A stretch of DNA of 64,000 nucleotides from Cenarchaeum sp. GTDB taxonomy: Archaea; Thermoproteota; Nitrososphaeria; Nitrososphaerales; Nitrosopumilaceae. Where the stretch lies: positions 1,504,001 to 1,568,000 of the forward strand of contig OY843768.1 in NCBI GenBank assembly GCA_963693095.2, read 5' to 3'. This document shows positions 40,795 to 64,000 of this stretch, piece after piece. The position numbers were made by a program, and so were the translations under genes. The notes under the pieces are model-generated. The model saw nothing but the letters and a program-made list of their open reading frames with translations. It had not been told where the DNA came from and did no database searches. Positions within the stretch are counted from its first letter, which is position 1; every line of letters starts with the position of its first letter.

Positions 40795-41616
40795 ATGAAG
40801 CGCGTGGCCCTCGTAACCGGATGCTCCTCGGGCATCGGCCTCGAGTCGGCCCTCGCGCTCGCAAGGGAGGGATACGCCGTGCGGGCAGGCGTTCGCGACG
40901 AGTCCCGTGCCGGCCCGCTCTCCGAGGCGGCGGCTGCCGAGTCCCTCGACGTGCAAACCGTGCGCCTCGACGTCGCCGACGGCGAGTCCGTGCGCGAGGC
41001 CACCGAGTCGGTTCTCAGGGACGCCGGTGCCGTCGACGTCCTAGTCAACAACGCCGGCTATGGCCTCTTTGGGTGCGTCGAGGACATCTCGCTTGATGAC
41101 ATGCGCGCGCAGTTTGAGACCAACTTTTTTGGGGCCGTTGCCCTCATACAGCGCCTCGCGCCGTCGATGCGAGCTCGCAAGGCGGGCCGCATAATCAACA
41201 TCAGCTCCGTGGCCGGCAGGATAGGCTTTCCATGCTCGCCGGCGTACGTGAGCTCAAAGTTTGCCCTAGAGGGCCTGAGCGAATGCATGAGGTACGAGCT
41301 CGGCCCGCACGGCATCGAGACAGTCATCATCGAGCCAGGGGTCATAAAGACGCCGTTCATGGACAACATAGTTGTGCCCGAGTCAGCCGACTCGCCGTAC
41401 GCCGAGATTACGCAAAAGGTCATCAGCGGGATAAAGATGATGGCAAGCCTCGGCACGCCGCCATCCGAGGTCGCGCGCACCGTCGTAAAGGCCGCCACCG
41501 AGGACAACCCGCCGCCGCGCTATGTGGTTGGCAACGACGCGAGCATGTTCCTAGAGACGCGCGCGTCGATGACTGACGCCGAGTTTGAGGAGTATATCAA
41601 AAAAGAGCTCTATTGA
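40795..41616 (+). CDS. Short-chain dehydrogenase/reductase (17beta-HSD-like classical SDR)
   Basis: TGCSSGIG, NNAGYG, TNFFG, SS, YVSSK and IEPG motifs. Confidence 0.93.
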   Translation: MKRVALVTGCSSGIGLESALALAREGYAVRAGVRDESRAGPLSEAAAAESLDVQTVRLDVADGESVREATESVLRDAGAVDVLVNNAGYGLFGCVEDISLDDMRAQFETNFFGAVALIQRLAPSMRARKAGRIINISSVAGRIGFPCSPAYVSSKFALEGLSECMRYELGPHGIETVIIEPGVIKTPFMDNIVVPESADSPYAEITQKVISGIKMMASLGTPPSEVARTVVKAATEDNPPPRYVVGNDASMFLETRASMTDAEFEEYIKKELY

Positions 41617-50600: not shown

Positions 50601-53600
50601 CGCGGCGACGGGCTCCCTGGCGCCGCCGACCGGCGTGCGCCAGACCTCCACGCCGTCGAGTATGCCGGGGCCGTCCGCCACGGCCGGATCCTCGGTGAGG
50701 AACAGCGTGTTCGGGCCGGTTTCCCTCGGGGCCTCCGACATGGCCGGCGGCATGCCGTCGGTGACTGCGAGCGTGGGCGGGACGGCTATGTTCCTGGAGA
50801 GCGGCGCGTTCGTGCCCAAGACGGCGTCGTTGGCGCGCAGTATGCCCGAGGACGCCGCGGTCGAGACCCAGGTGACCTCGAACCTGCCCAATGCTGACCA
50901 CACGTCATAAGTCGCCGTCGGGAAGCCCACGTGCCCCGTCGGCTCGATCGTGAGCGAGTCAGAGCCGGGGCCGACCGAGATGCCCCTGGCGGTGTACGAG
51001 ATGCACGCGTTGGGCACCGAGCAGTCCTGGCCAAACGTGGTGCGCGTGTGTCCTGCCTGGGCGGCCGGGGTGGTGCGCAGCGCGATGTCCTCCCCAAAGG
51101 AGACGACTATGCGGTCCGCCCTTATGCCGAATGCACTAGTGGTCGCCGTGTACGCCGTGATCTCGACGTGGTCGTTCCGGTCTGCAAGGTACGCGCACCC
51201 CTTGTAGGAGTCCTGCGTGTTGGGAACAGACGGCGAGGAGTCTGGGTCGTATATCGCGTGGAGGCGCGAGGCCGTCGAGGAGAGCGCGTCGTGCACGATG
51301 ACGACGCCGGCGCCAGAGCGCACGGAGACGACGCCGAGGAGAGCCCTCGGCGTTCCGGCGCCGGCCACCCTCTCGCACGACCCGTCCACGTCGCTGGCCG
51401 CCCCCTCGATGAGCTCCCACTCCGAGGTGTCCTGCGTCGGCGTAGTCGTCGCGCGGTCCCCAAAGTTCGGCTCAAAGTTGACCACCGAGATCTGCGCCGT
51501 GCCTGCTGCAAGGCCGGCTAGCGCGCCGGATATGGAGGAGAGCGAGGCAAACTCGGCGTCGCTCTCCAGGACCGACACGGAGGCGCGCGCGAGGGAGGCC
51601 TCGGCGGTGCCTGCCCACGAGTTGTGGGCAACATAGCCGACGTCGCCGGATGTGCGTATCGTGAAGGGAATGCGGTTTGCCGCCATGATTGGCCCGCCGG
51701 CCACAGTGTTGCCCCCCACGTCATGAATCGTGTCTGGTGGGATCGTTATCGTGTATATGTCACCGGTGACAAAGGCGAGTGTTGACGGTATAGTCATTGT
51801 GGCCGTGCTGTCCCCGTCTACGTGCGTGACGGCAACGCTGGGCGTGGCAGTTGCGCCTGACTTTGAGAGGGCCATTGTTGGAGGAACGCCGTACACGGGA
51901 TCGCCAAAGTCGATCGTTATCTCGTTGTTCACAACTGACAGCGACGCACTCGGTGATGGCGGAACCGTCAGGTCAAACGTGACGGCCTGCGCGAGGTCGG
52001 CCGCAGACGCAGTCACTTCGTTGGCTCCGCCGTCTGCTGCGCTGAGCGCAAACGCAAGTGTCGTGGGATCCGTGGCAGTCACCGTGTGCGTGGCCGACCA
52101 TGCCTCCCTATAGCCGCCGGAGACCCAGCGCATCAGAGTCGGCGTATCCCCAAAGAAGCCCAATGTTGGCGCATTGTCCCCGTAGCCGGCCGCCTCAGAA
52201 AGGGTCGCCGTTATCACAATGTCGCTGCCGATGCCGGCCGTGAGCGCGTTGGCTCCCGTGCGTTCCACCTTGTCCGTCACGCCGTCGGTCGGATCGTCCC
52301 AGAGGACGCGTGCCGAGACGGTCAGGGTCGGCACCGTCGAGTCGGCCGGAAGGTCAGCGTCCGCATACGCGCCGGTGTTGCTTCCAAGAATCGCAGACGT
52401 CATCGAGTCCGACGATCCGCTCCGGATGAGCTCAAGGAAGTCGGCAAGTCTGTCACCAGACGCATAGTCGGTAAAGTCGACGGCGTAGCGAACCAAGAGG
52501 CCGTCGGCATCTGCGGGCAGCGCGCTGCCCTCCGGAAGCGTGAGCGTGAGGATGCGCCCGTCAGGTGACAGGTCTGGCGACGCGCCGTTGAGGCGCAGCG
52601 GGTGCGCGTCGAGCGTCTCGGCGTCCACGGCACTCGCATTGGGCTCGACGACTGGCACGAGCGTGGAGGGCGTCTCGTCGATCCACCAGTTGTCACCGCT
52701 GAGCGCACTCACGCCAGGGCGCAGCGCGAGCGGCTCGCTGAACTTTACTATCACCTGCGTTGGCGAGGCAATGTATGCCGTGAACACTGGCCGCCCGTGC
52801 TCAAAGGCTCTCGTGAACGGGTATGCGACATAGCTGCCAAGAGTGCCGGCTGCCTCCGGATCCAGCGTGATGCGGTACTCGCCTGTGGCCGACTCGCCAG
52901 AGTTGTATGCAAAGTCGACACTCGCCGCGGATCTCGCGCGCTCGGAGACCGGAATGGTCTCGCCAGACGGCGAGCGCAGCGTGACGTCATCATCAAGGCT
53001 GAGCTCCGATATGGGCGAGGCGTCCGGAAAGGCCAGCTGGCGAACCGGTCCGGCTATGGTCAGCGGTGTGGTCAGGACGCCAAACGGGGCGGTTCTGTCG
53101 ATCGTGACTGCCGGGGCCGTGACAGTCTGGCTTGCAGTCGTTGCGGCGCCGTTGGCGTCCATAATTCCGGCGCCCAAGACCACAGAGTGGGCAGTTCCCG
53201 ACTCTACGGCATCAACGCTGAGCGTAAAGGCCGCGGGGTTGTCGGCGTTGTGCCTCACCTGCGCGACTGTGGCGGTCCCGCCGGCAGGCGTGACGCTGAT
53301 CGTCTCGCCGAGCGCATCGTAGGCCATCGCCTCGTCAAAGACTAGCGTGAACTCGTCTGGCGCCGAGACGTAAAACCCGCCCGTGGAGAGAACCGCAGGC
53401 GGCGACGCGTCGTACGTGGCAGTGACCGTGACCGCAACTGAGGACTGCGTGCCGGTTCGCGCGGCCACCGAGGGCACAACCACCGTGGCGACTGTGCCTT
53501 CGACGATTTCCATCTCGGCTGTAAATGACCGGACCACTGTCGTGTACGGATCGAACAGTGTGACGGTGCCGCTTCTGTACGCCGACGGTATCGACACGCT

Positions 53601-56600
53601 ATACTGGGCCTCCACCGCCGAGTTTGCGAGTGGCTCGCTAAAGTGTATCCTGATGGTCGACGCGCTTCCAAACGTGACGCGAACGAGCTTTGGCACGACA
53701 CCGTCAGTGGCGGTGATCGCAGGTGACGTGGCCATGAGGTGGCCGGCGTCACCGAGGAGGAGCGCGGTGCCGTCGTACGCCACAGTCGGAGTCGACGCCG
53801 TCGACCGGAGGCGCTCGTGCGTCAGCGTTGCGGACATGCCGTCGGCGGCGAGCGCGAATCCCGTGACGCGCCTAGTGTCGTCAGTTGTGCTGACGCTGTC
53901 GGGATCCGTCATGGTCCACCCCGTGATCCCCACTGTTCCGCGCACTGCCGCGCTGAACGTGACAGTCGTCGTCGTCAGCGACGACGTTTCCGCGCCGGTG
54001 ACAGTTGGCGCCGGTTCATACGTGGCAGTTTGCGAGCTGGCCGACGCGGCGTTGTCTGCCCTGTCGAGGAACGAGTTGGAAGGTATTGCGACTGTGTGCA
54101 CGACTCCCGCACTAGCCGACGATGCGAGGTTGATCCGAATGGCCGACGAGCCGACAGTGTGTGACGTGGACGGCGACGTTGCCGTGCCGCCTGCCGGAGT
54201 CACCGAGATCGTCGAAGGCGCCGCATAGATCTGCTCACTGAACCGGATTATGAGCGTGTCGGCGTCCTCAAAGGCCGTTTCAAGGTGCGCCGGTGCCGTC
54301 GTGTCCACCGTCGCGCCGCCAGACGTGATGTCATCTTCTGAGGCCGTACTTGTGGCCTGCGCGTTCTTTGTGGTCAGCGTGAACGTGACGGGACCCTCGG
54401 TGCTGCTAGCATCCACCATATGATCTGATGTCCATTGCGTGCGCGCAGGCGGCGCAGGTGAGCCGACGGTCACCTCGGCCATGTTAGAGGCCGATCCGCC
54501 AAGAATGGCAATTGTGGGCACGTTGGCCGCACCAGCCGGAGCCGCAGTGGCAAGTGTCGCAGTGACGCGTATGAGATCACCGACCCTCGCAAGCTCGGCA
54601 CGGCTGCCCATGCGCACAGTTGGATTGACAACAGAGTCATCGGTGTCATCGCGCAGGACCGTCACCTCCAGCGAGGCGAGCGCCGGTGCGCTCTGCGAGT
54701 ATCTTGCGGTGATCTGTGCGCCAGGCTCCACGGCGTTTGCCGACGTTGATCTGTCGCGAACGACGTTGGTCGTATCAGGTGTCGCGGGGGCAGGAACCGT
54801 GAACGCGTATCCCAGGTTCAGCTGTGCACCTGTGACAGTCAGGGCCACCACGTGGGGCGCCGGGCCCTCTGCGGCAGACGTTATGGAAAGACTCCCCGTT
54901 GTGGTCCAGCCCGATGACGGTGTCGTGACGGGCTCGCTGAACGTCACGTGAACCGTCGTCGCGCTGAGGAACTCTGCCTGCAGAATCGACGGCGCTATTC
55001 TGTCAGCGATGGTCGCCGGGCTCGCAGGCGCGGTGGCGGCAACTGTAAAGGAGAACGCGTCAGTTATGCGTGTGCCCGAGTAGGCCAGCGTGGCCGTGGG
55101 GTTCGCCGAGGAGAGGCTCTCGTGCGCAACTGTGAACACGCGTGTCGCACCAGTCGCGGCGATCGTCACCGGAGCACCAGGCGTGGCCGTGACTGTCATG
55201 CCGTTGGCGTCGATATAGGACATTGCCGTGATGGCCCGTGAAACGGCCCGCATGGGACCGGCCGCGCCGTCAGGATCGTCGCGGATCGCCCAGTCTGACG
55301 TGTCGAGCGTGCCGTGAACCGGCTCGGAGAACTCGATCGCCGTTGTTCCCAGGGACGTTGCGCCCGCCGTGAACGTGGGTCGTGTCGTGTCCATCGTCGC
55401 CATCTCGACGTCGGCCTCATGTGCGAGTCCCGCACTGTCCGTTATCGTGCTGGCCAGGCGCAGGCTGTACACCCCGTCAGCGACTGGCGAGGCCAACGAC
55501 AGCGTGATCACCGTTGAGGCAGTCTGTGGGTTCGCCGCACTCACGGTTCCCGCAGGCTGCGTGTTCTCCGAGTTGTACAGGGCGAACGCCGCAAGGCGCT
55601 CGGCAGGATCCGACGGCAGGCTGACTGCCTCGCTGAACGCAACGGTGATCGTCGAGGCGTCAGTGAACGAGATCGACGTGGCGCGCGGGCGGATCCCGTC
55701 GGTGGCTGCCATCTCGTCGTCATCGGCCAGCACGTTGCCGTCAGCTGCCGAGACCAGGCGGCCGGCTGCATCCCCGCGCGTGTACGAGGCCAGCGGCGTT
55801 GTTCCCGTGTCCGGAAGGTTTGCGTGCGAGAGGACCACCGTTGAGCCAGAGACGGCCGCGCCGGTCACCATCTGCATTGTCGAGACCCCGTTGACGCTCC
55901 AAGAGACGCCCCAGTGGCCCGCAATCTCGCCTGCAGTCGGTGAGCCCTGCACTGCGGCGGCCTCAGACAGCGTAACTACAGTCTCGTGCGTGTATGTCCC
56001 GTCGCCATTGTCAGTCTCCCTCGTGGCCACCGAGACGATTTCCGGACCGGCACCGTCGGCCAGGGGCGCACTAGCCACCGACGCGAGCGGCTTTGAGGCA
56101 GTGTCGAGTATTCGACCGGCAACGTTTGTGCCGGGATCCGTGTACGCAAGCGTCGCGCCCACTGCTGCAGTGGGCAGCGAGTCGGCCGCGAATGTCAGCG
56201 TGAGGATCAGGTCATCAACGCTGGCGTCAATTGGCGTGTGGGCCACGCCACCGATGGTAGCCCTCCACGGGGCTCCGCGCTGGGCTGCGGTGGGTTCCCC
56301 GCCAAAGACGACATCCTCGCTCATCGTCACCTCGATCACGCTAGCCGACGTCGTCCTGGCCGACGAGATCATCGGCGATATGGTGTCATGAAAGAACCGT
56401 GCAGTCGGCGAGGCGTTTGACCCCATGTCGGTAAACCCTGCCGGCGGTCTGATCGTGTACTCGACACCCTCGGCGAGCCCCGTGACATCCAGGGTCACTA
56501 TAGAGTCCGTGGAGCCATACATTACGGATGTAAACTCTGGAGAGCCCCTAGAGCCGGTGATCGACCAGCCCACAAATGATGCAGTCATTGGCTCGCTGAA

Positions 56601-59600
56601 TTGCAAAAGTATGCGCGTTGGGGTGGTAAACGTGACAAGCAAGACCGTCGGCGCCACGCCGTCGGCGGCCTCGGGATGCGGGACAGATGTGGAGAGCAGT
56701 GGGACGTCCGCATCAGACGCAAAGGCTGACGCGTCGGCTCCCGTGCTGAGGCGCGCCTCGCGCGAGCTCGAGTGCCTGACCTCGGGCACCGAGGCCGGAG
56801 AGGAGAGGGCCTCGTGGACTAGCGTGAGGCGCGGCGGGGACGGCGCGATGATGCTTGTGTGCGTGTAGGAGGCCACCGGTTCGGCGGTGCCTGCCCCGAC
56901 TCCCGTGACGGCCCTCGTGACGTCGGCTCCGTCAACGCGCTCGACGAGGGACCATTCGGACGCCAGCGTCGAGCCGCCCCAGAGCGCCAGGGATCCGCCG
57001 AGGTCGACTGTCGTGCGCGTCGAGGAGACGGTTCGCGCGGTAGAGACGTACATCCCGTCCTCGTACGTCGCCGTCGTGGCCGCCGGCGGTACGGCAAACG
57101 GGTTGCCGGCGGCGTCCCTCACGTCGCGGAGCTCGAGATCGTATTCGTCGCCGTCAGATGCGCTCGGCACGGTGACGGCGATGGCCCTCGAGTGGGCTGA
57201 CTGCGCGGCCGGTGCGTCAGCCGCACGCGCGCTCTCCCCAGGCGGCGTCACGCTGGCCGTGGGCAGGACAGAGACCGGCTCGGAGAACCCCACGAGGACC
57301 GTCGTCGGGCCGGCAAAACGCGCCCCCGTGAGGGTCGGCGCGATGCCGTCGTGGACCGGCACGGGACCGGCCGATGCCATCGGCTCGCCGGCGATAGTCA
57401 CGCCGCCGGAGCGCGGTGCCGAGTACGACAGGGTCGAGGACGGCGCGAGGCCGTCAAGGATGGCCGAGGCGGGCAGGTGGAGCGTGATTGCGCCGGAGGC
57501 CGGCACGGTGACAGAGCCGGCCGCAGGTGCCGTTCCGGGAACCGAGACGGACGCAGGCGCGCCGCCGCCGACGGACCAGTCGGCCGCCGACGTCGTCCCG
57601 CCGGCGGTGCCGCCGTGCAGCGAGACCTCGACTGTGCCGGGGGCCGTCGCGCGCGCGGTGAATGGCAGGCCCGAGACGGTCTGCGCCTCGAGGAGCAGGC
57701 CGCTGGAGCCCAGGCGGCCGTCGAGCTTGCCAAAGCCGGCCGGAGCGGGCGGGACGTACTCGACGGTCAGCGCCGAGGACGACGAGACCGGCGCGTGGGA
57801 GAGCGCGATGTGGTCGGCGACGACGACGGCGACGTCTGCCAGGCCGCCGGCCGTCGCGTCGGGCGCCGGCGTGGTGCGGCCTGATGAGACGCCGACGGCT
57901 CGGACCCTGGGCTCGCCTGCCCCCTCGCCGGAGACGAACCAGTGGCCCGCCCTGGTGGTGCCCGAGACCGGCTCGCTCAGGACCACGACTGTCCTGGACC
58001 GCCCCTCGCGCTCGACGGAGGCGATGGCCGGCTTTACCGAGACGTTGCCCTCCGAGTCGGCCAGGCCGACCAGCTCGACGTGGTCCGTCGCGGCCAGCGG
58101 CGGCGTGGCCGTGAGCGAGAACGCGTAGGAGAATGACCCCGGAGTCGAGATGCGCGAGGTGCCGGACACGGCGACGGGCTCCCTGGCGCCGCCGACCGGC
58201 GTGCGCCAGACATCCACGCCTTCGAGTATGCCGGGGCCGTCCGCCACGGCCGGCTCATCGGCGAGGATCAGCGTGTTCGGGCCGGTTTCCCTCGGGAAAT
58301 CCGACACGGCCGGCGGCAGGCCGTCGGTGACTGCTAGCGTGGGCGGGACGGCTATGTTCCTGGAGAGCGGCGCGTTCGTGCCCAAGACTGCGTCGTTGGC
58401 GCGCAGTATGCCCGAGGACGCCGAGTTCGAGACCCAGGTGACCTCAAACCTGCCCGATGTGGACCACACGTCAAAAGGCGCCGTCGGGAAGCCCGTGTGC
58501 CCAACCGGCTCGATCGTGAGCGAGTCAGAGCCGGGGCCGACCGAGATGCCCATGGCGGTACGCGAGATGCACGCGTTGGGCAGCGAGCAGTCCTGGCCAA
58601 ACGTGGTGCGCGTGGCTCGTGCCTGGGCGTCCGGAGTGGTGCGCAGCGCGATGTCCTCACTAAAGGAGACGACGATGCGGTCCGCTGTTATGCCGAGTGC
58701 ACTAGTTGCCGCCGTGTACGCCGTGATCTCTACGTGGTCGTTCCGGTCCGCGAGGTACGCGCACCCCTTGTAGGAGTCCTGTGTGCCGGGAACGGACGGC
58801 GAGGAGTCTGGGTCGTATATCGCGTGGAGGCGCGAGGCCGTCGATGATAGCGCGTCGTGCACGATGACGACACCGGAGCCAGAACGCACGGAGACGACGC
58901 CGAGGAGATCCCTCGGCGTTCCGGCGCCGGCCACCCTCTCGCACGACCCGTCCACGTCGCCGGCCGCCCCCTCGATGAGCTCCCACTCCGAGGTGTCCTG
59001 CGTCGGCGCAGTAGTCGCACGGTCCCCAAAGTTCGGCTCAAAGTTGACCACCGAGATCTGCGCCGTGCCGGCTGCAAGGCCGGCTAGCGCGCCGGATATG
59101 GAGGAGAGCGAGGCAAACTCGGCGTCGCTCTCCAGGACCGACACGGAGGCGCGCGCGAGGGAGGCCTCGGCGGTGCCGACCCACGAGTTGTGGGCAACAT
59201 AGCCGACGTCGCCGGACGTGCGTATCGTGACGGCAGCTCCGTCCGTGGTCTGTGCATACGCCACAGGACTCGCTGCCAGAATCGGGTTCTCCTCCAGATA
59301 ATCCAGAATATCGGCAAATAGCTGATCCGCAGGGGAGTCAGGATCAACTGGCGGGGATTCCATAGAGACTGTTGCCTTGCCGATGGCTGCGTTGCCCGGC
59401 ACCCCCTCCCACGCGTACCACAAGCTGACTGGAAACGGCACGCCTGCTGTGATGGTCTCTGGCGTCTCGCTGTGGGTTCCCATTGGCCACTGGCACTCAA
59501 GGTCGCATGGTATTTCCGGAGGCGTCGCGTGGGCCATCGTAGCCGAGCCGGACACGGCCAGCACGGCGGCCACAATGAGCGCGAGCGCCAGTGTTCTGAC

Positions 59601-59606
59601 CCCCAT
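41610..59606 (-). CDS. Giant (~5,998-aa) secreted/surface protein with many Ig-like repeats
   Basis: Uninterrupted ~18-kb frame. Signal peptide MGVRTLALALIVAAVLAVSGSATMAHA; TATA TTATATAA at 59629-59636; more than 30 Thr/Ala/Ser/Asp-rich beta-sandwich-type units (DxxAP...I/VxVxFSEPV); thaumarchaeal-type C-terminal DCTPPTLGVD...NHG..GESLN domain. Confidence 0.9.
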   Translation of the reverse strand: MGVRTLALALIVAAVLAVSGSATMAHATPPEIPCDLECQWPMGTHSETPETITAGVPFPVSLWYAWEGVPGNAAIGKATVSMESPPVDPDSPADQLFADILDYLEENPILAASPVAYAQTTDGAAVTIRTSGDVGYVAHNSWVGTAEASLARASVSVLESDAEFASLSSISGALAGLAAGTAQISVVNFEPNFGDRATTAPTQDTSEWELIEGAAGDVDGSCERVAGAGTPRDLLGVVSVRSGSGVVIVHDALSSTASRLHAIYDPDSSPSVPGTQDSYKGCAYLADRNDHVEITAYTAATSALGITADRIVVSFSEDIALRTTPDAQARATRTTFGQDCSLPNACISRTAMGISVGPGSDSLTIEPVGHTGFPTAPFDVWSTSGRFEVTWVSNSASSGILRANDAVLGTNAPLSRNIAVPPTLAVTDGLPPAVSDFPRETGPNTLILADEPAVADGPGILEGVDVWRTPVGGAREPVAVSGTSRISTPGSFSYAFSLTATPPLAATDHVELVGLADSEGNVSVKPAIASVEREGRSRTVVVLSEPVSGTTRAGHWFVSGEGAGEPRVRAVGVSSGRTTPAPDATAGGLADVAVVVADHIALSHAPVSSSSALTVEYVPPAPAGFGKLDGRLGSSGLLLEAQTVSGLPFTARATAPGTVEVSLHGGTAGGTTSAADWSVGGGAPASVSVPGTAPAAGSVTVPASGAITLHLPASAILDGLAPSSTLSYSAPRSGGVTIAGEPMASAGPVPVHDGIAPTLTGARFAGPTTVLVGFSEPVSVLPTASVTPPGESARAADAPAAQSAHSRAIAVTVPSASDGDEYDLELRDVRDAAGNPFAVPPAATTATYEDGMYVSTARTVSSTRTTVDLGGSLALWGGSTLASEWSLVERVDGADVTRAVTGVGAGTAEPVASYTHTSIIAPSPPRLTLVHEALSSPASVPEVRHSSSREARLSTGADASAFASDADVPLLSTSVPHPEAADGVAPTVLLVTFTTPTRILLQFSEPMTASFVGWSITGSRGSPEFTSVMYGSTDSIVTLDVTGLAEGVEYTIRPPAGFTDMGSNASPTARFFHDTISPMISSARTTSASVIEVTMSEDVVFGGEPTAAQRGAPWRATIGGVAHTPIDASVDDLILTLTFAADSLPTAAVGATLAYTDPGTNVAGRILDTASKPLASVASAPLADGAGPEIVSVATRETDNGDGTYTHETVVTLSEAAAVQGSPTAGEIAGHWGVSWSVNGVSTMQMVTGAAVSGSTVVLSHANLPDTGTTPLASYTRGDAAGRLVSAADGNVLADDDEMAATDGIRPRATSISFTDASTITVAFSEAVSLPSDPAERLAAFALYNSENTQPAGTVSAANPQTASTVITLSLASPVADGVYSLRLASTITDSAGLAHEADVEMATMDTTRPTFTAGATSLGTTAIEFSEPVHGTLDTSDWAIRDDPDGAAGPMRAVSRAITAMSYIDANGMTVTATPGAPVTIAATGATRVFTVAHESLSSANPTATLAYSGTRITDAFSFTVAATAPASPATIADRIAPSILQAEFLSATTVHVTFSEPVTTPSSGWTTTGSLSITSAAEGPAPHVVALTVTGAQLNLGYAFTVPAPATPDTTNVVRDRSTSANAVEPGAQITARYSQSAPALASLEVTVLRDDTDDSVVNPTVRMGSRAELARVGDLIRVTATLATAAPAGAANVPTIAILGGSASNMAEVTVGSPAPPARTQWTSDHMVDASSTEGPVTFTLTTKNAQATSTASEDDITSGGATVDTTAPAHLETAFEDADTLIIRFSEQIYAAPSTISVTPAGGTATSPSTSHTVGSSAIRINLASSASAGVVHTVAIPSNSFLDRADNAASASSQTATYEPAPTVTGAETSSLTTTTVTFSAAVRGTVGITGWTMTDPDSVSTTDDTRRVTGFALAADGMSATLTHERLRSTASTPTVAYDGTALLLGDAGHLMATSPAITATDGVVPKLVRVTFGSASTIRIHFSEPLANSAVEAQYSVSIPSAYRSGTVTLFDPYTTVVRSFTAEMEIVEGTVATVVVPSVAARTGTQSSVAVTVTATYDASPPAVLSTGGFYVSAPDEFTLVFDEAMAYDALGETISVTPAGGTATVAQVRHNADNPAAFTLSVDAVESGTAHSVVLGAGIMDANGAATTASQTVTAPAVTIDRTAPFGVLTTPLTIAGPVRQLAFPDASPISELSLDDDVTLRSPSGETIPVSERARSAASVDFAYNSGESATGEYRITLDPEAAGTLGSYVAYPFTRAFEHGRPVFTAYIASPTQVIVKFSEPLALRPGVSALSGDNWWIDETPSTLVPVVEPNASAVDAETLDAHPLRLNGASPDLSPDGRILTLTLPEGSALPADADGLLVRYAVDFTDYASGDRLADFLELIRSGSSDSMTSAILGSNTGAYADADLPADSTVPTLTVSARVLWDDPTDGVTDKVERTGANALTAGIGSDIVITATLSEAAGYGDNAPTLGFFGDTPTLMRWVSGGYREAWSATHTVTATDPTTLAFALSAADGGANEVTASAADLAQAVTFDLTVPPSPSASLSVVNNEITIDFGDPVYGVPPTMALSKSGATATPSVAVTHVDGDSTATMTIPSTLAFVTGDIYTITIPPDTIHDVGGNTVAGGPIMAANRIPFTIRTSGDVGYVAHNSWAGTAEASLARASVSVLESDAEFASLSSISGALAGLAAGTAQISVVNFEPNFGDRATTTPTQDTSEWELIEGAASDVDGSCERVAGAGTPRALLGVVSVRSGAGVVIVHDALSSTASRLHAIYDPDSSPSVPNTQDSYKGCAYLADRNDHVEITAYTATTSAFGIRADRIVVSFGEDIALRTTPAAQAGHTRTTFGQDCSVPNACISYTARGISVGPGSDSLTIEPTGHVGFPTATYDVWSALGRFEVTWVSTAASSGILRANDAVLGTNAPLSRNIAVPPTLAVTDGMPPAMSEAPRETGPNTLFLTEDPAVADGPGILDGVEVWRTPVGGAREPVAASGTSRASTPGSFSYAFSLTATPPLAATDHVELVGLADPVGNVSVKPAIASVEREGRSRTVVVLSEPVSGTTRAGHWFVSGEGTGEPRARAVGVAAGRAAPAPDATAGGLADVAVVVAYRVTLSHAPVSSSSALTVEYVPPAPAGFAKLDGRLGSAGLLLEAQTVSDLPFTARATAPGTVEVTLHGGAAGGTTSAADWSVGGGAPASVSVPGTAPAAGSVTVPASGAITLHLPPSALLEDSTPSSTLSYSAPSSGGVTIAGEPMASAGPVPVHDGIAPALTGARFAGPTTVLVGFSEPVSVLPTASVTPPGERASAADAAAAQSAHSRAIAVTVPSASDGDEYNVELRDVRDAAGNPFAVPPAATTATYEDGMYVSTARTVSSTRTTVDLGGSLALWSGSTLASEWSLVERVDGADVTRAVTGVGAGTTEPVASYTHTSVAAPSPPRLTLVHEALSSPASVPEVRHSSSREARLSTGADASAFASDTDVPLLSTSVPHPEAADGAPPTIVSAEFTAANMIAIMFSEALGGTRASIEGLTYAVSAPDGTVTPDDADGDADMIPLAAPDPSASPPVRPVSYDAASQTITLTLASAVPIGLIHTVTLPATLADEGGTAIVDLTEEVVYGSLPTTSFTFTVLDSVSQTSKSGAHANMAGIGDTIRVDLDLDIDVMTPPRITLAGRDTTSVPMGNAGDSDDSTWRHDHGVDSSHASTSAESPLEISILVTDNDGVPYDMTPTTNPAQGTTVTLPEIDTVRPTAMSLTVAVMLAGQAVDAAAGTVAAISDDLLVRLTASETLVTDAADIVFFGRTGVNADMVTDGGSNLHTYDRTILDTDTSGTLTFSLTMRDTAGNTATLTQDNLTGTNVAVDADAPTVTAMSHSDTMRTITLTFSEGLLATTAVAANFEVRGFTAPSTRSAVLDLDSDHGTDGVLYTAGASASEPSTLAIRLDEDDSYGVYKVVISPLVTDTNTNAYVPRLNPDDNPATDDSDITVQKTDMTAPRATELSVIVHDGTPGSNTAKTGLYDDFAGIDDTVRVDVTLNEDAVGTPTIDIAGATGISMADRGDDDATTWRYDLVVSSTTTETTSLDFTINVTDGTTSGTITAMTGHMGTLMVSRPTVDRTAPTATVTTSVRLEDASSDSSTVTTAGIDDEVRVTLTASEALDARVADIALFGLTGASTVNADSVEGVGANAYAYVRTIASGDVGGEIEFSVTFRDRAGNAGASALTHGDAAARVAVDATTPTIVSAETASTTTLTVTLSEDVTGTGTWSAESGSTTAVISSADVSGDTVTLTYGTIDDTSFAPTVRYTGTGIVDAGRNALQSGSSTPTADGVAPTATAAFTGQTITITFSEPVNGVTPTLTLTQPNGETIAPTFFHDDGDITASATLDGALPMGAWRVAIPASVEDVNENPLDAASRDISVGFSVAPTTISYTVFEQDGSTARQGALAAYARADDQIRLSVTLDGGVSMAPTVLFVGDTAPSDTVTMTQVGSTDEWRATYTVETAAAAPDIDGRFTFAMSVTGAVSGVSGTITDRSLSTVPPTIDHIVPTISAQTSGLREISVTFSDPVSGATVASEWRIGGTLATGISSGGPAQAGELSLTNGETLTLHLSEAGALADGSVRPAVVFTARATGGLADVAGNPVADTSVAAVDRIPPRLESMEFDGSRTIIVTLSEPIDGDTLGTIPPNSLSPRLGAIGHDYTQGSTSLMLGTVERARAGATHSLTLPASVTDVANPDGVARNAISRDSVSATLLNVLPLTFTARTYNASHVIVTFSEPVQGTTAASEWTLDVPSSDLVTPDGAGRAVNAVADEPHPMSAQRLDDTILASSEFTTPFYVGHKDPSVNPFPVWGPGATPVVTFTEPSDGLTNVVAADETSVALPTRSVTAGDGIAPTVLSALFVTQGRIHVIFDEDVSFESTGWSVSGLDVTDVTRGSGDTVVLDVNPPAVAGVAHTVEIARSSVRDGGSNELEADARITGVEYRDTITFAAKTQRDSSGTHIMVVFGDDVRGTTVASEWTIGVGVDGSGGAQADAILVRCTSGGSLMAAASVNVADICSGEDPEPRTFYLEYDAPDSGATPRVAYAAPTAQGATPIVSGFNGLPISSRAVLASDGLAPLFAAVATATSRTLEVTFDEDVMAADGEPDASRWHHYDSAGMIPTQAELDAAVAAGTSFASAELDGRTLTLTLPGSYAPVTGWGSGDTAAVPTTIGYSVPAGESPDILDVSSAANGLAGGIATRDVADAAPPEADTLTVIVVEDPDSDGTFTPKSGTGMRTASIGDAISATITLSEPSSSSSPPTFGALGEVQEMTLSNSDTTATGAIAVPPTWARDGPLEFSIVLTDATVAANTATLTQADLAGEPIDVDVNEPTIESVLRVSSTSLQFVFSEEVTGTGTVSASADSSPDPATDPSAPLLIRPSPTGRIAVAALALAGSHTFTLGAGITDVAGNAIAAQEVAIDDDGEFESPALSAPASGALPLSFRAPGERPAPITLLTDDLVADASGTFGADLTATVGGVSLTIRSGTILRDLGPTDAGATAGTLVARLTERAASTVYVGAIVAADADATDYNELVAAAINSREPHTLVVLGKEDASTPVLLSRPAAIRIDGVSRSSHIFYIDGAELRDVHGMRTCAEAGHGDADATTAPTLADATSAALADECYVRDDADVVIWTNHLTLFGASLQGLVNRVSGCSDCTPPTLGVDGTGTRRVSGGFEYNGDVTDAEYYHTPLPLITVETGQENVAILKVFEDTGPRNVRHVGLGFGLERGQHFAESRAEIHVDMPYGGGHTVRLDDPDNAIDADTLDVHVDTVKCMAGSDADCRLVMIRHTFRTPLEFSVVSTIVWDDRRNAWQNTFNHGVHVTGESLNARHGIPVNDGNLVLYPLISGHVDGDGDGIYDYDVRHVTYMLDSDYRVYRLAVDGTYQPLRNLASLLHELDEPLYWGTEYLPHGPARGTELFEGILEEERKIAADRLVEVDLLNLLRSAADKQSQ
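49091..59230. repeat. 2,574-bp intragenic direct duplication (49091-51664 and 56657-59230)
   Basis: Both ends align at a constant offset of 7,566 bp; the 858-aa block is near-identical in the translation. Confidence 0.95.
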
Positions 59607-59628
59607 TACGGCACGAAACGTCGAGGCC

Positions 59629-59636
59629 TTATATAA
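59629..59636 (-). promoter_or_regulatory. TATA box of the giant surface protein gene
   Basis: TTATATAA 22 nt upstream of ATG 59606. Confidence 0.7.
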
Positions 59637-59727
59637 TAAGAGATCTCTATCAGGGGGCCGTTTCATAACCGGCGGCCATGCGCGTGGCATATACACCCTG
59701 CCCATGTTGACCCTCCACACCTGTGAC

Positions 59728-61527
59728 CTATGCGGCGATTGCCGTGGCGTCAGGGTTTTTTGCGCGCGCCTCTGCCTCAAGCGCCTCGTTGTGGCGTCCG
59801 AGTTTGCGCAGTATCATGGCCCTGTTCTTGTGCCATTCGGCACGGTCAGAGTTCATCGAGATCGCGTGGTTTATTGTATCAAGCGCCTCGTTGTGGCGTC
59901 CAAGTTTGTGTAGTATCATGGCCTTGCTCAGGTGCCATTCGGCACGGTCAGAGTCCATCGAGATCGCGCGAACCACTGTCTTAAGTGCCTCGTTGCTGCG
60001 CTCGAGGTCGTTCAAGATGACTGCCTTGTTGGCATATGTCACACTGCTTGGATCCAGCTCAAGCGCGCGGTCTATTGCCTTAAGCGCATCGTTGTCGCGC
60101 CCGAGGCCGCGCAGTGCAAATGTCCTGTACCTGTGCAATACGGCATCATCGGACGTCTTTGCGACCATCTTGTCAAGGATCTCAAGCGCATCGGCATGGC
60201 GGCCAAGCAGGCAGTTATAGACGGACATGGCCGCATCCACATCATCTGCGCCAACAATAACTGCAGAGCCGCCGGCTACAAGGTCGATGTTCAGCGGGTT
60301 ATAAGATATTGAGAGTCCCTGCGTGCCGTTCTTCTGAACTCTGTGACCTAGGTCGTACGCCCTTAGGGTTGTTGCGGCCGGATCAAAGACCAGGTCTGGC
60401 GGCGGCGTCAGGGCAAACGTCCGCTTGCCTCTGTTGCGCCCGCAGAGCTCTTCGGCCATGACACCGCCGAGCTCGCCTGCCGGAACGCGCTCCGTGCCGC
60501 AGACGATGCACTCGTCAGCGCGAAACGTCCTCGTTGTCGAAAAGTCCATTGTGTCAATGTCAACGTGGAGTATGCGGCCTGCTAGCGCAGGCTCCTTGCC
60601 GGTCAAGAGGCGCGCGGCCTCAGATGCCTCTATTCCGCCAACGATCGACAGGACTGCGGGGTTTACGCCCTCTATGCTGCACGTCGGCATGGCGTCCTCG
60701 TCAAGCGCGGGGAACACGCAGTGATAGCACGCAGTCTTTTCTGGCACTATGGTGAGTGCCTGGCCGCTCACGCCGACGGCAGCGCCACTGACGAACGGTA
60801 TGCCGGCTCCGACGCATGCGCGGTTTAGCGCGTATCGCGCGTTTACACTATCAAGTGCGTCTATAACTACGTCGCAGCCCGCAATGACGCCAGCTGCGTT
60901 GGCCGCGTTCACCGAGACTGCCCTCTCCTCGACGATCACATTGGTGTTCATGGCGCGTAGGCGCTTGGCGGCGGCCTCTACCTTTACCTTTCCCACGTCA
61001 TCTTCCGTAAAGAGCACCTGTCTGTGGAGGTTTGAGAACTCGATGACGTCGCGGTCGACTAGACGCACGTGGCCAACGCCCATGCCAACTAGCCTGGCCG
61101 CTATCGGGTGACCGAGTCCGCCGACGCCGACGATGCATACGTGTGAGGCTCGCAGCTTTAGCTGACCCTCATATCCAATTCCCTCTAGCATGACCTGGCG
61201 CGAGTACCTGTCGAGATCACGAGGCGATAGCTCACCAGAGCCGCCGGCGACGGCCGGCAGGAGATAGACCTCATCACCGTCACTGAGCGCAGTGCCTAGG
61301 CCGCCAGAGAACTGGGCGTTCTTGCCGTTGACGTACATGTTTACAAGCGCGCGCGGCACGGGCTCGGGGGCCTTTGGGTCCTCGAGAACCTTGCGCGCAA
61401 AGTCCTCGCCCATCTCGCCGACGGCTACGCGAAGCGCGTCTCGCAGCGTGGTCGCATCGATCTCTAGCTTTTTCTCGCCGCCACCGGCATTGAGCACAGA
61501 GGGCACGACAAAGCTGATCTTGGCCAT
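59728..61527 (-). CDS. Ubiquitin-like (MoaD/ThiS/SAMP)-E1 (ThiF/MoeB/UbaA) fusion with C-terminal TPR repeats
   Basis: Ubl ending LLPAVAGG; RYSRQ, GVGGLG, D.D.IEFSNLHRQ, CYHC, catalytic PTCSIEG and CIVC motifs; about 150-aa tail of 34-aa LGRHNEAL..I..AI repeats. Confidence 0.92.
   Translation of the reverse strand: MAKISFVVPSVLNAGGGEKKLEIDATTLRDALRVAVGEMGEDFARKVLEDPKAPEPVPRALVNMYVNGKNAQFSGGLGTALSDGDEVYLLPAVAGGSGELSPRDLDRYSRQVMLEGIGYEGQLKLRASHVCIVGVGGLGHPIAARLVGMGVGHVRLVDRDVIEFSNLHRQVLFTEDDVGKVKVEAAAKRLRAMNTNVIVEERAVSVNAANAAGVIAGCDVVIDALDSVNARYALNRACVGAGIPFVSGAAVGVSGQALTIVPEKTACYHCVFPALDEDAMPTCSIEGVNPAVLSIVGGIEASEAARLLTGKEPALAGRILHVDIDTMDFSTTRTFRADECIVCGTERVPAGELGGVMAEELCGRNRGKRTFALTPPPDLVFDPAATTLRAYDLGHRVQKNGTQGLSISYNPLNIDLVAGGSAVIVGADDVDAAMSVYNCLLGRHADALEILDKMVAKTSDDAVLHRYRTFALRGLGRDNDALKAIDRALELDPSSVTYANKAVILNDLERSNEALKTVVRAISMDSDRAEWHLSKAMILHKLGRHNEALDTINHAISMNSDRAEWHKNRAMILRKLGRHNEALEAEARAKNPDATAIAA
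59777..59968. repeat. 102-bp tandem repeat (two TPR units)
   Basis: TCAAGCGCCTCGTTGTGGCGTCC starts at 59777 and 59879. Confidence 0.92.
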
Positions 61528-61872
61528 CTAGGAGACCACCCACTCCGTAACATCCTTTTTGCACGTGGGGCACCACACGCTCAGGCTCTCCCCAAAGATA
61601 CTCATCGCAGCTGGCAGCCCTATGCCATCCTTGTCCTCGCCCCACCTTGTCACGGGCTTTTTGCACGTGCGGCAGTGCCACAGTGTCTCCTTGACACCGG
61701 CCATCTTGGCCACAAGGTTGCTCACGCCTGAGTTACGCGTGTTGCAGTCGCCGCATATTCGGCGCACAGAAGCGCCATGTATTCTGTTCTTGCCTGGAGG
61801 AACTTTGGTTCCACAGTGGCCGCATCGAAAGAACGTGACGCAGTCGTCAGTCATGCGCTCCATCTCGGCCAT
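61528..61872 (-). CDS. 114-aa protein with four CxxC motifs (double zinc finger/ribbon)
   Basis: CGHC, CGDC, CRTC and CPTC; abuts thrC and the E1 gene by TAG-ATG junctions. Confidence 0.8.
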   Translation of the reverse strand: MAEMERMTDDCVTFFRCGHCGTKVPPGKNRIHGASVRRICGDCNTRNSGVSNLVAKMAGVKETLWHCRTCKKPVTRWGEDKDGIGLPAAMSIFGESLSVWCPTCKKDVTEWVVS

Positions 61873-63075
61873 CTAGCGTGCCACCGCCTCCATGACCGGC
61901 ACGGGTGTCGGCGCCTTTAGTAGCGGCGAGAGCGGCTCGATGGCCTTTAGGCCGTTGCCCGTCACATAGCACACGACAGTCTCATCACGCTCGACGAGGC
62001 CCGACTCGACCATCTTTTTGAGGACCGCGACGGACACGCCGCCGGCCGGCTCGGTGAATATGCCCTCGGTCCGCGCGAGGAGCAGTATGGCATCGAGTAT
62101 CTCGGCGTCGCCGGCCTCCTCGGCAGTCCCCGAGCTCGCCCTTAGCCTGCGCACGACGTACGGCCCGTCGCCGGGGTCGCCTATCGCCAGGCTCTTGGCG
62201 ACAGTCTCTGGCCTCTCAACGGGCACCACACGGCCACCGTTGCGAAACGCCGTGACTACTGGCGCGCATCCCGTGGGCTGGGCCGCGTCGACCTTCATGC
62301 CAGAGATCTCGCCGACGAGTGAGTGCTCGTGGAGCTCCTCAAAGCCCTTGCATATCGCGTTGAGCATCGCGCCGCTGCCAACGGGCACGACGAGGCGGTC
62401 GGGAACCTCCCAGCCGAGCTGCTCGGCGGCCTCGTAGGCCAGCGTCTTTGAGCCCTCGACATAATATGACCTCATGTTGATGTTGACGATGCCGTGGCCC
62501 TCGCGGTCACCGGCACGCGCGGCCATCCTGTTGGCGTCATCATACGTGCCATCAACTGAGATGAGCTCGGCGCCGTACGAGAGGGCCTGCACGACCTTTG
62601 GCGGCTCGATCTCAGCCGGTGCCCAAACCCTGCAGCGCAGGCCGGCGGCGGCCGCATGGGCCGCAGTTGCCGAGGCGAGGTTGCCTGTCGACGCGCAGCC
62701 GACTGCCGGCAGGCCGAGCTCGACGGATTTCGAGACTGCAACGCCAGCAGGCCTGTCCTTGAACGAGAATGTTGGGTTCATCGAGTCGTTCTTTATGTAG
62801 AGCCGGTCCAGGCCGATGGCCTTGCCGAGCCTCTTTGCGTGCGTGAGTGGCGTCATGCCGGCGCCAATGTTGATGATGTTTGAGCTTGACATGATGGGCA
62901 GCAGCTCGGCGTAGCGCCAGTACGTCGGCTCGCGAGACGCGATGGCCTCACGCGAGACTGTCACGCCGCTGTATTTCACGTCTAGTGGCCCAAAGCACGT
63001 GTCGCACACGTAGCGAAACGTCGGCTCGTGCTCGGCCCCGCACTCGCGGCACACGAGCGATATTGCCCTCTCCAT
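61873..63075 (-). CDS. thrC: Threonine synthase
   Basis: N-terminal CxxC pairs; WRY, G.TPL, NPTFSFKDR, ASTGN, EGSKT, PVGSG, EGIFTEPA and TGNGLK motifs. Confidence 0.94.
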   Translation of the reverse strand: MERAISLVCRECGAEHEPTFRYVCDTCFGPLDVKYSGVTVSREAIASREPTYWRYAELLPIMSSSNIINIGAGMTPLTHAKRLGKAIGLDRLYIKNDSMNPTFSFKDRPAGVAVSKSVELGLPAVGCASTGNLASATAAHAAAAGLRCRVWAPAEIEPPKVVQALSYGAELISVDGTYDDANRMAARAGDREGHGIVNINMRSYYVEGSKTLAYEAAEQLGWEVPDRLVVPVGSGAMLNAICKGFEELHEHSLVGEISGMKVDAAQPTGCAPVVTAFRNGGRVVPVERPETVAKSLAIGDPGDGPYVVRRLRASSGTAEEAGDAEILDAILLLARTEGIFTEPAGGVSVAVLKKMVESGLVERDETVVCYVTGNGLKAIEPLSPLLKAPTPVPVMEAVAR

Positions 63076-63151
63076 GGCTGCGCTATTCACGCGTGAACCT
63101 CTTAAAGGGCGCTAATATCAAGTTTAGTGTGACTTAACACGCACGCGTGCG

Positions 63152-63799
63152 CTATATGGCCGCAGATGCGGCCCCGTCAACTGCTATGGTCTGGCCCGAG
63201 AGGTACTTTACGCGGTTCTCGACGATCCCGCGCACCAGGCCCCCAATCTCGGCGGGCTCGCCGACGCGGCCGGCTGGCAGGTCTTTTGCATAGGTGTCCA
63301 CGTCGCCGACGAGCTCGCGCAGGCGATCCGTGTTGATGGGTCCGGGCGCAATGTTGATCACGCTGACCTGCCTCCTTGCAAGTGTCCTGCTCAGGACCTT
63401 TAGCACGCTAGAGAGCGCTGACCTGTATGCGCCAGACATGACAAGCCTCTCGGATGGTTCGCGCACAACGCTAGAGCTTATGAGAAATATGTACCCACCG
63501 TCGCGAATGCGCACCTCCTTGAGCAGGATGCACATTCCCAAAAAGAGCTGGTTGTGATACTTTAGCCACTCGTTCACTGCAATGTCGGCGAACTCTTTTG
63601 GCGGCGGGCCGCCCGTGTTGAGAACTAGTATGTCAGTCTCGGGGTGCGAGCGCGCAAACGCCATGACACTGTCGAGATCAGACGTGTCAATCTCGTTTCG
63701 TGATGTCGCAGTGACTGTGTGTCCGACGGCCCGCAGCGACTCGGCGATCGCGCCGCCAATCCCGCGCGAGCCGCCAATGACTATCGCCTCATCGGCCAT
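63152..63799 (-). CDS. Short-chain dehydrogenase/reductase (BKR-like)
   Basis: GGSRGIG, NTGGPP, NIAPGPINTDR, PAGRVGEP and GQTIAVDG motifs. Confidence 0.9.
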   Translation of the reverse strand: MADEAIVIGGSRGIGGAIAESLRAVGHTVTATSRNEIDTSDLDSVMAFARSHPETDILVLNTGGPPPKEFADIAVNEWLKYHNQLFLGMCILLKEVRIRDGGYIFLISSSVVREPSERLVMSGAYRSALSSVLKVLSRTLARRQVSVINIAPGPINTDRLRELVGDVDTYAKDLPAGRVGEPAEIGGLVRGIVENRVKYLSGQTIAVDGAASAAI

Positions 63800-63802
63800 G
63801 CG

Positions 63803-64000
63803 CTATTCTCCGGCGAGCTCCGTTATCTCCGTCACTGTCGCCATTACAGAGTCCATGCGGACAACTGCGCGGCCATCGGCCCAGCCGAGCGCGACGTACC
63901 AGTCGCCAGAGTCATCATGGTATTTCGTCTCTAGCGTCTCTATGGAGGCCGGCTCGACGCCCTCGCGCCGCGCTATGGCCGAGACGGCAAGCGAGACGGC
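63803..64000 (-). CDS. Hypothetical protein, C-terminal part (starts beyond the window)
   Basis: Open frame AVSLAVSAIARREGVEPASIETLETKYHDDSGDWYVALGWADGRAVVRMDSVMATVTEITELAGE*, ending 3 nt before the SDR start. Confidence 0.65.
   Translation of the reverse strand, partial: AVSLAVSAIARREGVEPASIETLETKYHDDSGDWYVALGWADGRAVVRMDSVMATVTEITELAGE

Follow-up and report, generated by a model that had tools for sequence, protein, structure and literature searches.

A probable MetM/MetO-type homocysteine operon in Cenarchaeum sp., with its sulfur carrier fused to the E1 enzyme and two accessory additions

Why does a gene that resembles threonine synthase lie directly beside a ubiquitin-like protein (Ubl) and its E1 activating enzyme, and what do a zinc-finger gene and a tetratricopeptide repeat (TPR) tail add to such an operon? 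We addressed these questions in a 64,000-nucleotide stretch of Cenarchaeum sp. DNA (assembly GCA_963693095.2, contig OY843768.1, positions 1,504,001 to 1,568,000), hereafter called the window. Three open reading frames (ORFs) on its minus strand follow one another head to tail: a ThrC-family first gene (thrCL), a gene for a 114-residue protein with four CxxC pairs (ZnF), and a gene for a Ubl–E1–TPR protein (the fusion). The original prediction, which was made from the sequence alone, saw here a thrC operon that the zinc-finger gene and the TPR tail may have remodelled into a targeted ubiquitin-like conjugation module. Our analysis points in another direction, as the core of the operon probably encodes, in archaeal form, the thiocarboxylate route to homocysteine known from MetM/MetO. 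The two additions are most likely accessory, either adaptors for the partners of this pathway or neutral accretions, rather than a switch to conjugation. Gene content, synteny, the tree position of thrCL, the conservation of a diglycine, and the absence of alternative routes are observed, and from these we infer every chemical step.

The features of the locus, all on the minus strand of the window, are as follows.

61873..63090, minus strand: thrCL, 405 residues, predicted MetM-type pyridoxal phosphate (PLP) enzyme with an N-terminal CxxC...CxxC zinc ribbon (from PALP, TIGR00260, and the tree)
61862..61875, minus strand: junction repeat, copy 1, TAGATGGCCGAGAT, with the thrCL stop and the ZnF start; the natural 345-base joint falls here
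61528..61872, minus strand: ZnF, orphan 114-residue protein with two zinc ribbons (four CxxC pairs), a strain-variable and probably accessory gene (from the ORF, protein clusters, and population contigs)
61517..61530, minus strand: junction repeat, copy 2, TAGATGGCCAAGAT, with the ZnF stop and the fusion start
59728..61527, minus strand: the fusion, whole ORF, 599 residues
61234..61527, minus strand: Ubl domain of the ThiS/MoaD type, residues 1-98, ending in AVAGG, MetO/CysO-like (PF02597)
60478..61233, minus strand: E1 adenylation domain of the ThiF/MoeB type, residues 99-350, with two CxxC pairs (Pfam, NCBIfam, and PDB matches)
60193..60477, minus strand: conserved C-terminal domain (C-domain), residues 351-445, predicted TBP-like alpha/beta fold, motif EELCGRxxGKRTF (alignment and model)
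59731..60192, minus strand: TPR tail, residues 446-599, about 5.5 repeats, confined to one small clade (Pfam, tree, and model)

At both gene junctions, TAG is followed by ATG without a gap. The ORFs together with the Pfam and NCBIfam searches confirmed the layout of three coupled genes that had been read from the letters, and the domain matches likewise bore out the identification of a sulfur carrier (Ubl) and E1 module.

By profile search, thrCL matches PALP in Pfam (2.9e-70) and the thrC model TIGR00260 in NCBIfam (280 bits, above the equivalog cut-off), and the SFKDR lysine motif of the PLP fold is invariant across nine thrCL orthologues. It is one of two ThrC-family genes that exceed the TIGR00260 cut-off in the window's own genome (G000, 99.55% complete). 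For comparison, we used a panel of 41 related genomes, 24 of them from the same family; the related genomes carry labels such as G004 and G018. The second gene, paralogue 2 (about 450 residues), occurs in every one of these 24 genomes of the family, and thrCL and the E1 are both missing from G018 and G020 (98-99% complete). A 342-residue ORF that is probably cytosine-5 DNA methyltransferase-like lies directly after paralogue 2 (L004 2502-3530, plus strand).

Papers that cite Hasebe et al. (2024) describe MetM as an enzyme homologous to threonine synthase and "often misannotated as such," which converts O-phosphohomoserine and MetO-thiocarboxylate into homocysteine with the help of MoeZ and Mec. 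One such citing paper places an S-adenosylmethionine (SAM) riboswitch upstream of S. albulus metM, and a cyanobacterial MetM homologue with 51.6% identity is also mentioned. The top thrCL match in a plasmid collection is a gene of Nonomuraea gerenzanensis, which is 47% identical over the whole protein, with the N-terminal zinc ribbon included. The SAM riboswitch RF00162 is found upstream of this gene (68.7 bits versus a gathering score of 44.4), and the gene is followed by a 91-residue ThiS-like gene that ends at AVAGG-stop, the product of which is 31% identical to the Ubl of the window. This layout agrees with the metM-metO arrangement as the citing papers describe it. An Rfam scan of window positions 59000-64000 returned no RNA element at E <= 0.1.

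A tree of 41 ThrC-family proteins, which was calculated with IQ-TREE and included 17 archaeal thrCL rows, with annotated thrC genes of other records as outgroups, separates the two kinds of enzyme. The thrCL of the window, 16 archaeal orthologues, and the Nonomuraea protein form one clade (100/100). The ThrCs of Brevibacillus and S. aureus, which come from hom-thrC-thrB operons, fall outside it, as do the rows of paralogue 2, which form a 100/100 clade of their own. The "thrC" of the window is thus probably a MetM-type paralogue and not a threonine synthase, so that the conserved operon is best read as one for homocysteine synthesis rather than as a thrC operon with a passenger E1. With thrCL in the MetM-type clade and a universal paralogue 2 in the family, the earlier view of this gene as thrC was not supported.

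The Ubl and the E1 are the conserved partners of thrCL. In the fusion, ThiS covers residues 24-96 (PF02597, 34.5 bits) and ThiF (PF00899) covers residues 108-338 (1.8e-73), and the E1 domain matches ThiF and MoeB structures at 1e-44. The C-terminal AVAGG of the Ubl corresponds to residues 92-96 of the fusion. The only sequence match of the Ubl in the PDB is 3dwg_C (E 1.7e-11), which we take to be the CysO-type biosynthetic sulfur carrier of M. tuberculosis. In the CysM/CysO/Mec+ system of that organism, a ThiS-like carrier thiocarboxylate likewise feeds a PLP enzyme; however, this enzyme is of the cysteine-synthase type and acts on O-phosphoserine, and its carrier and E1 are separate proteins.

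Counting that of the window, thrCL adjoins Ubl/E1 genes in 27 of 30 loci. A wider scan for thrCL relatives gave 80 named archaeal loci among the matches listed, which are filled by Thaumarchaeota. The Ubl gene comes directly after thrCL in 78 of them, with a spacing of -13 to +42 nt, and the other two run off their contigs. The coupled loci span Nitrosopumilus, Nitrosotalea, Nitrososphaera, Nitrosocaldus, and Bathyarchaeia, and the presumed pathway appears to be common to most ammonia-oxidising archaea. Ubl and E1 are fused in 64 of the 80 loci and split in 11, and 3 show the Ubl only, whereas neither ZnF nor the TPR tail is found in any of them. The statement in the original prediction that "thrC" is followed in relatives by a shorter MoaD-ThiF fusion lacking TPRs was therefore right for the compared loci, as was the view that the tail and the ZnF gene are lineage-specific additions.

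The diglycine is invariant, and AVAGG is kept in the fused as well as the split forms; the diglycine is fused in frame to the E1 in 21 of 27 loci, and five of the six split Ubls end at GG-stop. In the fused forms, the GG is followed by a short variable linker. As translated, the diglycine does not offer a free C-terminal carboxylate but runs into the E1 in 64 of 75 named loci, and because the E1 follows in frame, the polyprotein must be cut to expose the carboxylate. Behind the adenylation domain, the C-domain carries the near-invariant motif EELCGRxxGKRTF with an invariant Cys. This domain matched no solved structure by sequence, and Foldseek returned nothing at E <= 0.001. Its model has a mean predicted local distance difference test (pLDDT) score of 83.8 alone and 90.3 with the tail, and resembles the TBP fold rather than rhodanese (Z 9.2, rmsd 2.9 over 85 residues), a similarity that exceeds the usual background of 7-8 only modestly and is silent on function. 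Against the MoeZ model NF005902, the E1 reaches 152 bits versus a cut-off of 647.

The gene content of the genome agrees with a need for such a route. No protein of G000 matches PF01053 (Cys/Met-PLP enzymes) over the cut-off, and HcyBio and MetE are both absent from G000 by family search. The homoserine kinase ThrB (199 bits) and a MetH-type S-methyl_trans domain (250 bits) are present. The fusion is the sole E1 of the genome and bears its sole clear ThiS domain. Across the panel, strong PF01053 enzymes occur in three of the eight genomes without a thrCL orthologue (at least 50% identity) versus 2 of the 33 with one, and outside the family the two systems are partially complementary.

If these parts act together, homoserine kinase would supply O-phosphohomoserine, and a JAMM protease encoded elsewhere would cut the Ubl–E1 polyprotein after the diglycine. 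The E1 would adenylate the freed C terminus of the Ubl, and addition of sulfur would give the Ubl-thiocarboxylate; the E1 carries a conserved Cys-bearing C-domain, and three tandem-rhodanese proteins are encoded in G000. The PLP enzyme encoded by thrCL would then join the thiocarboxylate sulfur to O-phosphohomoserine, and the homocysteine released would be methylated by the MetH-type enzyme. The TPR tail would be a later addition, gained once in a small clade with TPR-rich genomes and kept in frame since. ZnF would also be a later addition, a translationally coupled orphan inserted exactly at the stop/start junction and still strain-variable.

The original prediction saw no JAB gene in the window and expected the protease that releases the GG terminus to be encoded elsewhere, and in gene content both points were borne out. 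A genome search found two stand-alone JAB genes with intact JAMM motifs (G000, contig C1, 1184250 and 802212), both of which map outside 1504001-1568000. One of them, the desampylase-like JAB-1, may be the best candidate for the cut; in NCBIfam it is closest to the desampylase model (72.9 bits versus a cut-off of 130), and its homologue adjoins an E1 in G026, G030, and G036.

Several observations weigh against the homocysteine assignment. The thrC model favours thrCL (280 bits) over paralogue 2 (193 bits), and the two resemble solved threonine synthases about equally by sequence. The E1 is without the rhodanese domain of MoeZ: there is no rhodanese among its Pfam matches, and the C-domain was modelled differently. 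G018, G020, and G036 have neither a thrCL orthologue nor PF01053, which argues against a simple either/or, and G028 and G040 carry both the thrCL system and PF01053. Since G018 and G020 have neither the thrCL cluster nor PF01053, another route or an auxotrophy for methionine/homocysteine would have to exist within the family. Both JAB genes are retained in G018 and G020 despite the absence of the cluster, so there is no co-loss and the co-loss test does not discriminate. Moreover, an NcsA/TtuA-like gene is present (G000, contig C1, 1400307-1400873; L154 1288-2304, minus strand), so that the only Ubl/E1 pair may serve other clients. The E2 family PF00179 had no match in G000, but none in any control genome either, and archaeal sampylation needs no E2. 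Finally, the tie to S. albulus MetM passes through a single Nonomuraea locus and through what the citing papers report. As to the NcsA/TtuA-like protein itself, it has 338 residues, a PP-loop (SGGKDS), and CxxC pairs at both ends.

Comparing the operon with known systems, the closest is that of S. albulus (MetM/MetO/MoeZ/Mec) as outlined in the citing papers. In both, a ThrC-homologous PLP enzyme adjoins a GG-ending carrier of the ThiS/MoaD type, and O-phosphohomoserine is the expected substrate; the outline also includes a separate E1 that charges the carrier and a JAMM hydrolase that is needed. However, the carrier of the window is fused to the N terminus of the E1, the E1 has a TBP-like C-domain in place of rhodanese, there is no riboswitch, the JAMM gene is unlinked, and a TPR tail and ZnF have been added. 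The same fusion family is known as the thaumarchaeal MoaD-MoeB fusion, which was found in 61 of 98 thaumarchaeal assemblies (PMC11237513) and compares with 64 fused loci of 80 here. That account files it under molybdenum cofactor (Moco) synthesis, whereas here a MetM-type enzyme gene invariably accompanies it in tight coupling; moreover, its treatment of the MoaD-MoeB fusion mentions neither the TPR-tailed form nor the ZnF insert. MoaE (PF02391) and MoaC (PF01967) gave no match in G000, with controls positive in 11 of 14, so the Moco role given to the fusion in PMC11237513 does not fit here. In the JAMM-cleaved linear MoaD-MoaE fusions (Yang et al. 2018, as cited in PMC11237513), a Ubl is similarly joined through GG to a partner enzyme and requires proteolytic release, but the fused partner in the window is the E1 itself. 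Our literature searches turned up no paper in which the operon of these archaea is linked to methionine synthesis; Hasebe et al. (2024) may discuss archaeal homologues, and the GapMind supplements contain no MetM, MetO, or thiocarboxylate text. By this comparison, the core is probably of the MetM/MetO kind, an archaeal member in which carrier and E1 are fused, and the lineage of the window is a variant with two accessory additions.

The explanations also divide on these additions. One of them, which is compatible with a homocysteine core, holds that ZnF and possibly the tail have no pathway role, ZnF being a recent, near-neutral or selfish insertion and the tail a by-product of TPR expansion. 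We consider it improbable, though it keeps a real chance. The rarity of ZnF speaks for it: the gene occurs in 1 of 201 family genomes (a further match at E 0.007 contains stop codons) and forms a single 90% cluster in a word-index search of 5.8 billion proteins. ZnF matches no Pfam or NCBIfam family over the cut-off and has no paralogue in G000. An exhaustive search of 1.84 billion representatives gave weak relatives only (E 1e-6 to 1e-4), which share the zinc-ribbon module of its second half, and a metagenome scan gave only a 21-residue match (L048). In P0003-P0008, this second ribbon appears as a rare unnamed module, CxxC...D..G..LP...FGE..P..CPxC...TEW, of which a handful of metagenome proteins, a EukProt protist sequence, and Leishmania conserved hypothetical proteins each have two copies. 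A stronger apparent relative, P0002 (E 1.9e-12), proved to be a repeat protein without cysteines and was set aside as a spurious match.

The population data, which comprise four runs of four studies (X1, X4, X6, and X7), also favour an insertion without a role. ZnF is flanked by two copies of a 14-base repeat, TAGATGGCC[G/A]AGAT, and G004 has a single repeat copy and no ZnF. In X4 and X7, one contig each skips exactly 345 bases at the repeat, and loose ends in X1 and X6 read through the same joint; X1, X4, and X6 also contained contigs that carry ZnF and show 0 differences. The gene is therefore present or absent among co-occurring strains, with a clean joint at the flanking repeat.

On the other hand, several features of ZnF argue against an insert without a role. 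Its CxxC pairs are C17/C20, C40/C43, C67/C70, and C101/C104, and all eight cysteines are kept in the four cluster members, which are 100, 98, 96, and 81% identical. The 81% variant, P0012, has an in-frame 4-residue deletion, which together with the kept cysteines is evidence that ZnF is a real gene. The stop-start coupling, too, has remained exact. Within the subclade of 599-600-residue E1s, ZnF belongs to four of five assemblies, as the four ZnF proteins and four of the five E1s sit on contigs of equal size. Because one of these paired E1s is G004-like, G004 has probably lost ZnF, to judge from the matching contig sizes. The comparison of G000 with G004 changes at the junction, from 93-95% over thrCL and upstream to 82.9% over the E1. 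The composition of ZnF (GC 0.58; GC at third codon positions, GC3, 0.72) is the same as that of its neighbours and thus gives no sign of foreign origin.

The TPR tail presents a similar balance. Several Pfam TPR families match residues ~445-599 of the fusion, and a long extension is absent from all 63 complete E1 genes of the named loci. Of the 120 top-ranking clusters in a search of 5.8 billion proteins, six are TPR-bearing at no less than 98% coverage (599, 599, 627, 661, 662, and 662 residues), and the other 114 measure 437-461 residues; the tailed E1s of 627-662 residues have an insert of ~35 residues inside the C-domain. When the tree was restricted to residues 1-350, the 10 tailed proteins came together in one 11-row clade (94/91), of which the one tail-less row is a 461-residue protein from a 2.3-kb contig. 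The sister lineages have no tail. This indicates a single gain. Retention after that gain, with the length and frame kept and the tail modelled at pLDDT 90 and packed onto the C-domain, argues against a mere by-product. Expansion is nevertheless evident in the genome, where tblastn with the tail gave 155 matches, 113 of them within 1.8-2.0 Mb of contig C1, and the tail is less conserved than the core (49% identity between G000 and G004 versus 85% in the E1 core). The fusion query has 33-36 matches per genome in this genus, nearly all to the TPR part, versus 1-3 in most others, and the tail is ~40% identical to other TPR genes of G000. The stretch at ~1.8-2.0 Mb of contig C1, which lies outside the window, is a TPR gene-rich region of 200 kb.

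The original prediction had treated tail and ZnF as paired additions, and this stood in one direction only. ZnF was always found with the tail, and ZnF without a tail was never seen; but at this locus G004 and G002 have the tail and no ZnF, as do the natural ZnF-minus contigs, and the pairing is therefore not obligate. A complex prediction for the full fusion with ZnF scored 0.00, with the fold of ZnF itself uncertain, and so weighs neither for nor against contact.

The claim built on this pairing was that TPRs in cis and ZnF in trans may have made the E1 a substrate-targeted, sampylation-like conjugation system; host or symbiont proteins would be possible targets. In archaea, UbaA/SAMP systems serve protein conjugation as well as sulfur relay and work without an E2, and that of Haloferax volcanii consists of a single small E1, GG-ending ThiS/MoaD-like Ubls, and a JAMM desampylase, with no E2. 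The operon is similar in that a sole E1 and a sole, GG-ending Ubl serve the genome and that the best match of JAB-1 is the desampylase model. The tail kept in frame across the clade, together with the translational coupling of ZnF and its conserved cysteines, would also suit conjugation. However, the E1 does not reach the cut-off of the UbaA equivalog NF047750 (207 versus 450 bits), and the gene context is biosynthetic: the core, probably an amino-acid biosynthesis operon, is kept in 78 of 80 loci free of both additions. The lack of an obligate pair and a Ubl whose sole PDB match is presumably a biosynthetic carrier likewise argue against conjugation, which we regard as very unlikely. A further version, in which an E1 with a recruiting TPR arm (and ZnF in some strains) would also conjugate the homocysteine carrier to chosen proteins of this TPR-rich, symbiont-like clade in an E2-free manner, might apply but is similarly a long shot.

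Also very unlikely is the view that thrCL is a true threonine synthase beside a general Ubl–E1 relay that supplies sulfur to Moco, thiamine, or tRNA thiolation, since the score of thrCL above the thrC equivalog cut-off, the labels of the fusion in its sources (ThiF, thiazole, or molybdopterin protein), its placement under Moco in section 12 of PMC11237513, and the NcsA/TtuA-like gene are opposed by the missing MoaE and MoaC in a 99.55%-complete genome, the universality of paralogue 2 in the family with joint loss of thrCL and E1 in G018 and G020, the 100/100 clade with a riboswitch-bearing, MetO-adjacent gene that leaves the hom-thrC-thrB ThrCs outside, and a tight coupling that reaches Bathyarchaeia.

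Directly downstream of the E1 lies an ORF of 6056 residues (window 41610-59780, minus strand), which overlaps the 3' end of the E1 by ~50 bases if the listed TTG start holds. Its translation has long internal duplicated blocks and an N terminus that resembles a signal peptide. Downstream of the E1, the window gave no alignment with the 18 kb that surround the operon of G004.

Ammonia-oxidising archaea belong to the most abundant of all microbes, yet G000 shows no classical homocysteine route. The reading of this operon as a MetM/MetO-type route would, if true, fill that gap in metabolic models. It would also correct the widespread annotations "threonine synthase," "thiazole," and "molybdopterin," and would reassign a fusion that has so far been filed under Moco synthesis. 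In addition, the TPR tail and the strain-variable ZnF offer a natural comparison, with and without, for the way in which accessory domains join an essential E1.

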